Notes: generated by a model not told the origin, from the letters alone. A DNA stretch of 64,000 nucleotides from Candidatus Tayloriibacteriota bacterium (GCA_003151615.1 PLXZ01000001.1:134544-198543); one strand, 5' to 3'; shown: positions 23,597 through 25,875, numbered from the stretch's first letter. Translations and numbers: made by a program.

Positions 23597-23625
23597 TTGA
23601 CAATATAATCTAATCATGCTATGAT
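23597..23625 (+). promoter_or_regulatory. Near-consensus sigma70 promoter
   Basis: TTGACA (23597-23602), a 17-nt spacer, then TATGAT (23620-23625). About 90 nt upstream of an RBS-ATG at 23719. Confidence 0.6.
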
Positions 23626-23718
23626 GATCCCAGAAAGATGAGTTCTTTGATACGACCATGTTCACAGCAGTCCTCACGGATTGCGCATGGAAGACAGGGG
23701 ATTCGAGGAAAGGAATTT

Positions 23719-24045
23719 ATGAGCACTTTCAACTACTCCATCGGCGATTTCACTAGTAACGGCATTAAAATCAACCTGGAAACATGGGTAACGGAATGGG
23801 GTGGAATTGGAATTCTCCATTACGATCGCTACATCAACATTAGAGGCGTTAACAGGGATGGCACACTCTTCGAAAGGGGATGGGTGTTTGGCTACCAAAG
23901 AAACCATAATGAAGGAGAAGTAGATTCTTTCTTAGCAGAGAAAGGTTTCTCTGGCTTCAGAACGCTTGTTTCTTCCATAGAACGTTCCAACGCCCCAACA
24001 TCATCGTATCAAGCGCGCCGCTACCTAACGCGCAATCACGGGTAG
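23719..24045 (+). CDS. Hypothetical small protein (ORF A of the hammerhead cassette)
   Basis: 109 aa from ATG 23719 with RBS GAGGAAAGGA upstream. Local GC is higher than the flanks. No motif I recognise. Confidence 0.4.
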   Translation: MSTFNYSIGDFTSNGIKINLETWVTEWGGIGILHYDRYINIRGVNRDGTLFERGWVFGYQRNHNEGEVDSFLAEKGFSGFRTLVSSIERSNAPTSSYQARRYLTRNHG

Positions 24046-24089
24046 TATTTCAGCGGAATATTACCCCAAGGGTGTGAAAAATGCACACC

Positions 24090-24142
24090 TTCTGTCCGAG
24101 AGTGAGTACTCTCGCTGACGAGCTCGAAAGAGCGAAACAGAA
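24090..24142 (+). ncRNA. Type III hammerhead ribozyme (HH1)
   Basis: Read directly: helix III TTCTGT/ACAGAA; cleavage triplet GTC with C17 at 24096; helix I CGAGAG-TGAGTA-CTCTCG; core CTGACGA; helix II GCTC-GAAA-GAGC; GAA; A15.1-U16.1. All invariant core nucleotides are present. A 6-bp hairpin (GGTGTG/CACACC, 24071-24089) lies immediately upstream. Confidence 0.85.
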
Positions 24143-24252
24143 TGTTCTTTACATTAAAGGCTCTCACTACCTATTACAAAAGTGAGCTGTTTTGCGGTGC
24201 TGGCTCGTCACTAGTTCGCGCTTCAGTGAAAAAAGCGGTTATGGAGGTGCCC

Positions 24253-24597
24253 ATGGGCCTACTCCGTACCAACGAGTTTCCGCCGAACCCGCATGCACAG
24301 CCTGAACAGTTTCAGGAACACATGAGTGGCAAAGCGACGACTGAGTTGGTCGCGGAAAAGCAGACTCCGGAGGAAGAGAATCTTTCGCTGTTGCAAAACA
24401 GTGAAGGAAATCTATTCCTCGCGGATGGTGCACGCTTGTATCGAGTTCTCGACTTCACTTTTCTGGGAATTGAAGCAAAGACTCTCGACACGAGCGAGCA
24501 CAAGGTTTACCACCTTTCCAATGCAGCGTTTATCCGCCTTGCGGCCGAACGTGATGTGTTGGAGAAGGAGTTGACCACTGCTCCCGCTGAAGGATAG
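24253..24597 (+). CDS. Hypothetical small protein (ORF B, lying between the two hammerheads)
   Basis: 115 aa from ATG 24253, with GGAGG 5 nt upstream. An alternative ATG is at 24241. No motif I recognise. Coding status is uncertain. Confidence 0.35.
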   Translation: MGLLRTNEFPPNPHAQPEQFQEHMSGKATTELVAEKQTPEEENLSLLQNSEGNLFLADGARLYRVLDFTFLGIEAKTLDTSEHKVYHLSNAAFIRLAAERDVLEKELTTAPAEG

Positions 24598-24684
24598 TGC
24601 TAACCTTCAATTCAGAAGCACTAATTTTTGTCACCTTTCTAAAAGCGTGAGTCTGGCGTGCAGCGCTGGGAATGAAAATTCTCG

Positions 24685-24734
24685 TCCGTCTCGGAATATA
24701 TTTCCGACTGATGAGTCCACAAGGACGAAACGGA
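24685..24734 (+). ncRNA. Type III hammerhead ribozyme (HH2)
   Basis: Read directly: helix III TCCGT/ACGGA; cleavage triplet GTC with C17 at 24690; helix I TCGGAA-TATAT-TTCCGA; canonical core CTGATGA; helix II GTCC-ACAA-GGAC; GAA; A15.1. Same strand and orientation as HH1. About 25 nt upstream of the liv binding-protein ATG. Confidence 0.85.
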
Positions 24735-24759
24735 ATTTATTAAATAGTCACTCTAAAAA

Positions 24760-25875
24760 ATGAATAAAACAAATAAAATAATTGCAGGTATTGTTGTGGT
24801 TGTCTTGGCAGTATGGGGTATTTCATACCTTGCAACACCGAAAGGGCCAACAACAAAACCTACCATAAAAATTGGTGTCACTTTGCCGCTCACGGGAGGT
24901 GTCGCTACACTTGGTCAAGCGAATAAGAATGCGATTCTGTTGGCATATTCCCAACTTCCTAAAGATACAAAATACAATTATCAGCTTATTTTTGAAGATG
25001 ATGCTTTTAATCCGGCCACGGGCGCATCGACGGCAAATAAATTGATAAGCGTTGACGGCGTATCGGCTTTGATATCATTCGGTTCGCCGGTGGGAAATGT
25101 CGTCAGCCCGATTGCCGAGCAGAATCATATAACCCATATCAATGATTTCGCATCGGATCCTCATGTTGCGAGCGGAACTTATAATTTCGTCGACTATACG
25201 CCCGCATATCAGGATGCAAAAGTATTCTTCCCTGAATTAGAAAAACGCAACATACACACGATTGTTTTCTTTGGTCAGCAGGATAATACAGGGGCGCTCG
25301 CGCTTATCAGTACGTTCTTAAGCGTTGCTTCGAGCACTCCGTCAATCAAAGTCCTCTCTACGCAGATGTTCAATACTGGAACGACGGATTTCCGCACACA
25401 GATTGACAAGGTAAAAGGACTTAATCCGGACATTTATGTGTTTGAAGCAAGCAGTCCCGAGCTCGAAATCCTGACGAAACAACTTCGTCAGGAAGGCGTG
25501 AATACTCCCATAACGACAATGGAAGCTTTTGATTTCTCGAGCCAGCTATCGCTTTTCGAAGGCGATTGGTATGTGGATGCGGCGGATCCTACGTCATTGT
25601 TTACCGATCTATATACGAAAACATATGGCATTGCTCCTTTGGCTGGCGCCGCAAACGGTTACGATTCATTCAATATGATTGTTCAGTCGGTAGAAACCGT
25701 CGGCGATGGAAAAACTATACCGTCGAGCACCGCTATTGCCCACGCAGTTGCGCAGATAAAAGGTTTCAATGGAGCTCTTGGAAATAATCTAAGCGTCGGT
25801 TCAGACCATCTGGTCGTATCCCAAGCCGTTGTTAAAATGATAGAAAACGGCAAGCCGGTGACGATAGCACAGTAG
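24760..25875 (+). CDS. ABC transporter substrate-binding protein, branched-chain amino acid (LivJ/LivK-like)
   Basis: Signal/TM anchor, then IKIGVTLPLTGGVATLGQANKNAILLA, typical of type I periplasmic binding proteins of the Liv family. Confidence 0.75.
   Translation: MNKTNKIIAGIVVVVLAVWGISYLATPKGPTTKPTIKIGVTLPLTGGVATLGQANKNAILLAYSQLPKDTKYNYQLIFEDDAFNPATGASTANKLISVDGVSALISFGSPVGNVVSPIAEQNHITHINDFASDPHVASGTYNFVDYTPAYQDAKVFFPELEKRNIHTIVFFGQQDNTGALALISTFLSVASSTPSIKVLSTQMFNTGTTDFRTQIDKVKGLNPDIYVFEASSPELEILTKQLRQEGVNTPITTMEAFDFSSQLSLFEGDWYVDAADPTSLFTDLYTKTYGIAPLAGAANGYDSFNMIVQSVETVGDGKTIPSSTAIAHAVAQIKGFNGALGNNLSVGSDHLVVSQAVVKMIENGKPVTIAQ

Follow-up and report, generated by a model that had tools for sequence, protein, structure and literature searches.

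What can two self-cleaving ribozymes contribute when they flank a single small gene in a bacterial chromosome? The question is raised by a locus in a stretch of 64,000 nucleotides, hereafter called the window, from a Candidatus Tayloriibacteriota bacterium (GCA_003151615.1 PLXZ01000001.1:134544-198543). Here, a cassette of ~1.1 kb, consisting of two small genes, ORF A and ORF B, and two hammerhead ribozymes, HH1 and HH2, is located between the promoter region at the side of a TrmB gene and a liv-type transporter cluster, which is of the ABC type for branched-chain amino acids. In transcripts of bacteria and prophages, clusters of hammerheads have been found on both sides of single genes. Their cleavage of polycistronic RNA was shown in vitro as well as in E. 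coli (PMC3088659), and a role for them has yet to be defined (PMC3088659; reviewed in PMC6765202). The locus is an example of this known arrangement, with a new context and with a structured coding RNA. It is fairly probable that we are dealing with an old accessory cassette, the single transcript of which is cut by HH1 and HH2 into three RNAs, thereby uncoupling the liv genes. A preliminary description had already recognized the cassette; that finding is real, and the interpretation given to it was partly right. Few related loci are available, mostly as short contigs from metagenomes, and the functional statements below rest on sequence analysis.

Hammerhead ribozymes and the putative transcription unit

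HH1 (24089-24143) and HH2 (24683-24736), which like the other elements of the cassette are on the plus strand, are type III hammerheads with the cores CUGACGA...GAAA and CUGAUGA...GAAA, respectively. When 1.5 kb was searched with the Rfam model Hammerhead_3 (RF00008), they obtained 42.0 bits (E 2e-7) and 43.3 bits (E 9e-8); for the whole window, the E-values are 9e-6 for HH1 and 4e-6 for HH2. All core invariants, i.e., C3 U4 G5 A6 N7 G8 A9, G12 A13 A14, A15.1-U16.1, and H17, are present in both. Since both also contain a GUC triplet, self-cleavage is predicted at 24096/24097 for HH1 and at 24690/24691 for HH2, the latter site being 69 nt ahead of the liv start codon. The three helices around the core, with stem III open, are supported by covariation. 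Over 11 distinct hammerhead copies, 94.6% of the cells are paired, and compensatory changes are found in 13 of the 17 pairs. None of 500 shuffled alignments reached the observed paired percentage or the covariation score, three of them reached 13 pairs, and slid controls of the alignment were at most 52% paired. R1, a custom model built from related hammerhead copies, assigned 75.2 bits to HH1 and 67.2 bits to HH2. The minimum free energy (MFE) structure of HH1 is a three-way junction, and HH2 reaches this fold in its context. Thus, the presence of two hammerheads, as claimed in the preliminary description, stands. Neither Rfam nor R1 detected a third one in the 64-kb window, and a regular-expression match at 37506 was dismissed because it has no proper stem. 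HH1 and HH2 cannot be regarded as copies of a single repeat: they have only the core in common, their flanks are unrelated, and the stem III strands differ at one paired position. HH2 is 98% identical in the sister lineage L016 and in the related contigs L006-L011. Of the related loci, L004 contains four hammerheads, L021 three and L002 two, and L003, L006-L011, L016, and L019 contain one each.

A sigma70-type promoter is found at 23597-23625, with the -35 box TTGACA, a spacer of 17 nt, a TG extension and the -10 box TATGAT (11/12). The promoter given in the preliminary description is thereby confirmed: it is the top promoter-like site in 23300-25000, a region in which seven such sites were found, vs. 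2.6±1.4 expected, and its -35 box, spacing, TG and -10 box are all retained in L016 and L003, with a different spacer sequence. The transcript is expected to start at about 23632, which would give a 5' leader of 87 nt (23632-23718) ending in the Shine-Dalgarno (SD) sequence of ORF A. The leader is 86% identical to that of L016, vs. 79% for the coding sequence of ORF A, and it is also present in L003 ahead of unrelated ORFs; hence, it is better conserved than ORF A itself. It has no match in Rfam. An inverted repeat, TTGTCAATT (23511-23519) and AATTGACAA (23595-23603), brackets the divergent promoters of TrmB and the cassette, and its right-hand copy overlaps the -35 box of the latter. As GTCAAT-like motifs recur in the intergenic regions between TrmB and the substrate-binding protein (SBP) gene of outgroup genomes, this repeat may be a TrmB operator.

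No terminator-like site was found in 23300-25000. Downstream of HH2, a leader without SD sequence and the start codon of the first liv-type gene (together 24737-24762) are 100% identical to L016. The liv start lacks both an SD sequence and a strong promoter that would belong to it alone, and the binding-protein genes of the outgroups likewise have short leaders without SD sequence.

ORF A (23719-24045; SD GAGGAAAGG) encodes a lineage-specific small protein of 108 amino acids (aa). Among 5.8 billion proteins, a single homologue was found (P0013), which belongs to the L016 lineage and shows 70-71% aa identity. The dN/dS ratio of 0.33 relative to L016 indicates purifying selection. Searches in Pfam, PHROGs, PADLOC, NCBIfam, and PDB sequences, which were made for both ORFs, gave no match for ORF A, and its AlphaFold2 (AF2) model is poor (pLDDT 59). 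The folding z-score of the ORF A RNA is -2.0. Its 3' end (24040-24091) carries two hairpins, one at 24040-24066, with 12 bp and overlapping the stop codon, and one at 24070-24090; the segment 24040-24146 folds with a z-score of -5.6. The first of these hairpins shares 96% identity with hairpin P1 of motif X, an element of L016 that is discussed below.

The structured RNA of ORF B and its predicted protein

ORF B (24253-24597) encodes 114 aa and is preceded by the SD sequence GGAGGTG. The two ORFs with strong SD sequences are therefore present as described before; the lengths of 109 and 115 aa given there included the stop codon. The protein starts with a conserved N-terminal peptide, MGLLRTNEVPPNPHAQPE, and is predicted to be a PH-like β-sandwich with a C-terminal helix; AF2 produced a confident, compact core from 11 sequences only. 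Approximately 20 homologues were found, all unannotated, and those with a named source are from Candidatus Taylorbacteria and Candidatus Saccharibacteria, i.e., from the Candidate Phyla Radiation (CPR). The frame is open in every homologue, indels are multiples of three, and pairwise dN/dS ratios are 0.2-0.3. Together, the open frame, the SD sequence, the dN/dS ratios and the predicted core argue for translation of ORF B. As for ORF A, there was no match in Pfam, PHROGs, PADLOC, NCBIfam, or PDB sequences, so that the statement that neither ORF contains a recognizable motif can be upheld; hits to AvrM_N (E 0.08) and to antibody light chains (E 0.4) in these searches were considered noise. When 1.84 billion representatives were searched with a profile, only three more small homologues emerged. 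The search also returned Reg_prop β-propeller repeat proteins, in which one β-hairpin motif was matched, and this was set aside as a motif-level resemblance. The window copy of ORF B lacks the stop (GAGAAG TAG/TAA) used by all other homologues and extends by nine codons into the structure of the 3' untranslated region (UTR) (24568-24597).

The coding sequence of ORF B is itself highly structured. In the window, its folding z-scores are -5.6 to -6.1, and all nine homologues fall between -4.3 and -7.9; the remaining 58 window genes have a mean of -0.01±1.22 and a minimum of -3.2, which makes ORF B the most structured coding region there. The consensus comprises 68 pairs with 92% of the cells paired, and compensatory changes were found in 22 of these pairs, vs. 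9.8±2.2 in shuffles and 8-10 in slid controls, although the structure had been obtained from this very alignment. In the two protein types, some helices persist with differing sequences, which means that amino acids changed along with the pairing partners.

Both UTRs are structured as well. The 5' UTR (24144-24252) contains a covarying hairpin and the 3' UTR (24598-24682) a covarying helix, and they are 88 and 98% identical, respectively, to those of L016. They are more conserved than the protein, even in a copy from Saccharibacteria of which the protein is only 37% identical. For one segment of the 5' UTR, local pairing and pairing with the SD region are alternatives, and both of them are maintained by compensatory changes in L004; this alternative pairing at the ribosome-binding site suggests that the 5' UTR controls translation. 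The 5' and 3' UTRs could also pair with each other over a long range, for which covariation gives no support, as the bases involved are invariant. No Rfam family was matched by the UTRs or by motif X, even at E 10 on a stretch of 241 nt. Between the predicted cuts, HH1 body, ORF B and UTRs would form an RNA of 594 nt (24097-24690). The MFE of this unit is -223.8, vs. -182.6±6.8 for shuffles (z -6.0), and its predicted fold is branched. Terminator-like hairpins follow the 3' UTR of ORF B in L013, L003, and L018 and are absent from the window copy. Judged from the alignments and the structural model, ORF B thus appears to be dual-purpose: a conserved base-paired RNA of ~500 nt that also encodes a PH-like protein of ~105 aa.

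Insertion, age and exchange of modules

The cassette was inserted into an existing gene order. In the sister lineage, L016 with L006-L011, the order is the same as in the window, i.e., promoter and leader, ORF A, ORF B, HH2, binding protein, permeases and ATPases; the binding protein of L016 is 88% identical at the aa level, with a dS of 1.9 (saturated), and the permeases are 61-69% identical. In contrast to this clade, the outgroups L022, Ia_McW85, and L023, of which the binding proteins are 72, 70, and 66% identical to that of the window, have the TrmB gene on the minus strand adjoining the binding-protein gene on the plus strand, with a gap of 50-175 nt. There are no hammerheads in L022 and L023, and the gene map of Ia_McW85, for which only this map was available, leaves no room for the cassette between the two genes. 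Since the window and L016 are mutual closest relatives (88% vs. 72% and 65%), the most parsimonious explanation is that ~1.1 kb was inserted once between TrmB and liv, in an ancestor that they share. The only part that can be aligned with an outgroup is a block of 28 nt near TrmB, ATTTTTGTCAATTGTTACGAACAAAATA (23507-23534), which is 89% identical to the TrmB/SBP intergenic region of L022 and includes the left-hand copy of the inverted repeat, and exact boundaries of the insertion can therefore not be drawn.

These data modify the view of the cassette as a recent, compositionally foreign acquisition. That it is an accessory insertion is supported by the outgroups without it and by the exchange of modules described below. 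Its presence in L016 shows that the insertion, although real, is old, and synteny that was kept while the neighbouring genes became saturated at synonymous sites argues against recent acquisition. The 3' UTR of ORF B, HH2 and the segment from HH2 to the ATG are 98-100% identical to L016, beside a binding-protein gene with a dS of 1.9, which points to constraint on HH2. The composition is ordinary: the GC content of the cassette is 0.480 vs. 0.464 for the window, and 32.5% of all 1105-nt windows are equally or more GC-rich. For ORF A, the GC content (0.462) is at the 44th percentile of 59 genes and that at third codon positions (GC3) at the 46th; for ORF B, these values are 0.522, the 92nd and the 80th percentile, respectively. 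Only relative to the AT-rich promoter region immediately to the left (0.30-0.38) is the cassette GC-richer. The real compositional outlier of the neighbourhood is an ORF of 159 aa at 22200-22679, in the gap between the RhuM and TrmB genes, with a GC content of 0.369, a GC3 of 0.269 and no family match. Of the checks that had been proposed, the windowed GC profile turned out unremarkable and the comparison with related genomes yielded three without the cassette, short of defining its ends. Ordinary GC and GC3 values and retained synteny are findings that, according to the preliminary description itself, would speak against recent acquisition.

Within this conserved order, the identity between the window and L016 shifts abruptly. 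It is 86% in the leader, 79% in ORF A, 96% in the hairpin at the ORF A stop, and 34% in the slot of HH1. Within the ORF B unit, it amounts to 88% in the 5' UTR, 90% in codons 1-36, 53% in codons 37-105, and 98% in the 3' UTR, followed by 98% in HH2, 100% from HH2 to the liv ATG, and 78% in the binding-protein gene. The core of the window ORF B is 82-87% identical to those of L001 and L002, which have unrelated contexts, vs. the 53% to the syntenic L016. ORF B occurs without ORF A, alone or with other partners, in eight contexts (L001-L004, L012, L013, L018, and L021), and the two are found together only in the window/L016 lineage; they are thus not an obligate pair. In L003, the promoter, leader and a ribozyme of the HH1 type are as in the window, but the small ORFs are different. 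Two loci from Taylorbacteria, L004 and L021, contain approximately ten small ORFs on the same strand, separated by hammerheads, motif X and a further element, motif Y. In L013, the ORF B unit stands by itself: it has a separate TTGACA promoter, a terminator-like hairpin and no hammerhead. Judging from these mosaics, cassettes seem to be reshuffled through recombination within non-coding parts that are conserved.

Motif X, a conserved element of ~95 nt that differs from the hammerhead, occupies the slot of HH1 in L016 (527-640). It is placed between small ORFs, and other copies are found in L002 (~831-935), L003 (~586-692), L004 (~1820-1940, 3855-3962, and 5108-5225), L012 (~425-532), and, cut, L001 (555-594). 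It consists of a variable, covarying hairpin followed by an irregular hairpin of 18 bp with the conserved base ACUUUAU/AUAGAGU; in this long hairpin, 94% of the cells are paired and 7 of the 18 pairs show compensatory changes. Motif X may function as a ribozyme of a new kind, as an RNase III site or as a site of recombination. L001, a contig of 594 nt and thus equal in length to the unit between the predicted cuts, was first taken for a circular monomer; this was rejected because its ends are inside motif X, a repeated separator at which the assembly was broken.

Several further elements were noticed. Motif Y, CCCGUAAU-hairpin-CGC..GCGGAAACUGUUGGGAUGAUUAAAUCGUCCC, is an intergenic element found twice in L004 (~60-150 and 2600-2690), one copy being directly upstream of a hammerhead. 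Upstream of the Saccharibacteria copy of ORF B (L018 ~170-240), a GACGAAAC stretch resembles a decayed or variant hammerhead, and it was detected neither by Rfam nor by R1. Hammerheads and motif X have a common tail, i.e., a small AGAA/AGAG-loop-UUCU hairpin followed by UUACAA or UUGAUA. Such tails are found in L002, L004, L006, and L012 and, in the window, at 24140-24155 and at 23632-23655, where one opens the leader; perhaps, they represent a shared 5' UTR element for stability or translation. The sequence A(A/C)GGAATTTAT occurs both at the ribosome-binding site of ORF A (23709-23720) and at the 3' edge of HH2 (24729-24740), 1020 nt apart, which may be due to chance or may be a trace of module joining. 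The shortness of the repeat and the lack of the leader in the outgroups leave a circular permutation of 1020 nt or a target-site duplication unsupported.

Pfam annotation confirmed that the cassette is located between the TrmB and RhuM genes on one side and the liv genes on the other. Its left neighbours are RhuM, the ORF of 159 aa and TrmB, and HU is also encoded in the neighbourhood. To the right follow a Peripla_BP_6 binding protein (24760-25875), the first liv-type gene, and then two BPD_transp_2 permeases, more binding proteins and two ABC ATPases. Named homologues of the binding protein are from Patescibacteria, Parcubacteria, Taylorbacteria, and Vogelbacteria, which places the host in the Patescibacteria (CPR). 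Relative to L016, which has a binding protein, two permeases and two ATPases, the liv cluster of the window contains an extra block (27698-30731) between permeases and ATPases, in which a second and a third binding protein enclose a divergent TrmB-like gene on the minus strand. The RhuM gene (21170-22177), 1.4 kb upstream of the cassette, matches the candidate defence family PDC-S05 of PADLOC (E 2e-135). Four tRNA genes in two pairs (18310-19408) are located 4-5 kb upstream of the cassette and not at its edge. Annotation of the neighbouring genes revealed no integrase, and no direct repeats flank the cassette, where only short two-copy repeats compatible with chance were found.

Proposed processing of the transcript and alternative explanations

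Co-transcription, self-cleavage and an insulating role of the ribozymes are what we infer from this organization. Transcription from the promoter at 23597-23625 would produce a single RNA comprising leader, ORF A, HH1, ORF B, HH2, and the liv genes, and cleavage by HH1 and HH2 would divide it in three. The first product would be a leader-ORF A mRNA ending in the two hairpins, which may be protective; the second, the ORF B RNA of 594 nt, with the 5'-OH and 2',3'-cyclic phosphate ends known from the established biochemistry of hammerhead cleavage; and the third, a liv mRNA beginning with the folded HH2. The three RNAs would thus gain separate stability and translation, much like messages behind a RiboJ insulator. 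The inserted genes could then share the promoter of the transporter, probably under control of TrmB, without burdening the liv message. HH2 occupies the position of the terminator in stand-alone ORF B units, and transcription would in this way run on into liv. The earlier proposal that expression is gated by ribozyme processing is plausible.

Some of these features are reminiscent of known systems. As in the clusters of Perreault et al. (2011), hammerheads on the coding strand are positioned between small genes, mostly of unknown function, the gene content between the ribozymes is variable, and the ribozymes are proposed to divide a long transcript into RNAs of gene length. Two coding-strand hammerheads bracket single genes in one putative transcription unit, and related arrays (L002, L004, and L021) have two to four. 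Unlike those clusters, the locus described here is in a CPR chromosome, without a phage match or the prophage or integrase context that is typical of such clusters, though not obligatory; the ribozymes are exclusively of type III, and the last one hands over to a conserved housekeeping transporter operon. Moreover, one of the enclosed genes is itself a conserved structured RNA, and relatives substitute another structured element for a hammerhead (PMC3088659 for the comparison). A literature search for hammerheads in connection with CPR, Patescibacteria, Parcubacteria, or Saccharibacteria yielded nothing relevant.

With engineered insulators, the locus has in common that a hammerhead is positioned ahead of a cistron, although here the element is natural and its function is deduced. 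RiboJ-type insulators, reportedly described by Lou et al. in 2012, are said to place a hammerhead before a cistron, which strips off the upstream RNA context and leaves a structured 5'-OH end. In related arrays, the hammerheads are followed by the hairpin and UUACAA tail, which is only partly present at the window locus. The RNAIII/hld transcript of S. aureus is an RNA of ~500 nt with many conserved stem-loops that encodes a small protein. ORF B RNA resembles it in size, in its stem-loops and in encoding a small protein, but its reading frame accounts for ~60% of the RNA, and the predicted product is a folded protein of ~105 aa. Integron cassette arrays and the intercistronic RNase III sites of T7 offer another comparison. 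Shared features are one upstream promoter, promoterless small ORFs in the same orientation, structured separators and a cassette content that varies between genomes; as differences, no integrase or attC signature was seen, and at least some separators are predicted self-cleaving RNAs instead of recombination sites or RNase III hairpins. The irregular 18-bp hairpin of motif X is a candidate RNase III site by analogy with T7.

Several observations weigh against the proposed processing into three RNAs. With less than 48.5 bits, the gathering score of Rfam, both hammerheads are overlooked by a default scan; such a scan of the window returned four tRNAs only, and the hammerheads emerge when E-value thresholds are used. 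HH2 on its own has an alternative fold as its MFE structure. Because motif X occupies the HH1 slot in L016, cleavage at that site is not demonstrably conserved. The liv genes could be driven separately, either by the one internal promoter-like site, a weak one (9/12) at 24571-24598, or, in L016, by a promoter in 45 extra nt between HH2 and liv. Finally, insulation leaves the high structure of the ORF B RNA unexplained.

The low Rfam scores would fit decayed relics, in which case liv would simply be preceded by two ordinary small genes. The intact cores, the compensatory changes in 13 of 17 pairs and the 98% conservation of HH2 beside genes with saturated dS make this explanation highly improbable. 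Another explanation is that the excised ORF B unit is circularized, by RtcB or by reversal of the hammerhead reaction, or that its flanks are rejoined, which would make it a viroid- or retrozyme-like coding RNA. Two type III hammerheads on the same strand, 594 nt apart, would leave 5'-OH and 2',3'-cyclic phosphate ends; the unit is highly structured (z -6.0), including conserved, covarying structure within the coding sequence; and, with stem III of HH1 and HH2 differing at one paired position, a chimeric closing helix is possible. Also the encoding of a protein by a structured RNA, as in Obelisks, and the spacing of two hammerheads of the same polarity by ~600 nt of structured RNA, as in retrozymes and viroid-like RNAs, are shared features. 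However, ORF B units with one hammerhead and motif X on the other side (L016) or with none (L013 and L018) show that double excision is not conserved, HH1 and HH2 are neither repeat copies nor located in direct repeats as in retrozymes, and the predicted fold is branched rather than rod-like as in Obelisks and viroid-like RNAs. The unit is encoded by bacterial chromosomal DNA within an operon (on a DNA contig of 563 kb) and, again unlike retrozymes and Obelisks, exists elsewhere with a promoter and a terminator and without ribozymes. Without repeats, DNA-encoded, branched and with ribozyme-free copies, it is not a retrozyme or Obelisk. Circular and spliced products were also considered possible by Perreault et al. 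(2011) and were not detected in their cases (PMC3088659). Altogether, circularization seems unlikely.

The idea of the preliminary description, i.e., a recent, compositionally foreign selfish module carrying a toxin/antitoxin, anti-defence or phage-derived pair, is quite improbable as a whole, with its recency and foreign composition largely refuted. It is consistent with the absence of the cassette from the outgroups, with the exchange of modules between genomes, as illustrated by the ORF B core, with the RhuM/PDC-S05 gene 1.4 kb upstream, and with the hammerheads flanking ardA (Perreault et al., 2011; PMC3088659). Against it are the ordinary GC and GC3 values, synteny retained across saturated dS, and the lack of an integrase, flanking repeats or a boundary tRNA. 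As to a toxin/antitoxin pair, searches in Pfam, PHROGs, PADLOC, and NCBIfam produced no toxin/antitoxin, defence or phage family, the ORFs are 207 nt apart, and they co-occur in this lineage only, ORF B being found in eight contexts without ORF A; nothing in the Pfam, PADLOC, and NCBIfam searches of either ORF points to an anti-defence role. A phage origin was not borne out in five tests, all negative: searches of IMG/VR with two UTR patterns and a protein pattern, of INPHARED by blastn, and of BFVD with the predicted fold by Foldseek. Just as doubtful is the view that the ORF B region is mainly a large noncoding RNA with an incidental or weakly used frame. In its favour, nucleotide conservation of the UTRs and the first 36 codons exceeds the amino-acid conservation of the protein, folding z-scores are low in all nine homologues, and helices covary even where amino acids change; but open frames with indels in threes, a strong conserved SD sequence ahead of the start, dN/dS ratios of 0.2-0.3, and the confident compact fold all speak for a protein.

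A broader possibility, which we regard as speculative and rather unlikely, is that the ORF B unit represents an undescribed class of CPR RNAs of ~500-600 nt that are DNA-encoded, structured, coding, and excised by ribozymes, and that travel in cassette arrays with interchangeable self-processing separators, motifs X and Y being new ribozyme classes. If so, the ORF B unit might circularize or act as an RNA itself. The three newest classes of self-cleaving ribozymes were likewise found beside hammerheads and twisters.

The role of genomically encoded bacterial hammerheads is largely open, and the locus offers a clean natural test case for it. The ribozyme pair would allow an inserted cassette to borrow the promoter of a conserved transporter and then to part the messages again, and sister and outgroup genomes display the states before insertion and after module swaps. 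ORF B stands out as a conserved coding RNA with a folding stability (z about -6) like that of structured noncoding RNAs, and motif X, at the position of a ribozyme in a relative, is a concrete candidate for biochemical testing. With this locus, ribozyme-punctuated gene arrays are extended to the CPR bacteria, the RNA biology of which is almost unexplored.

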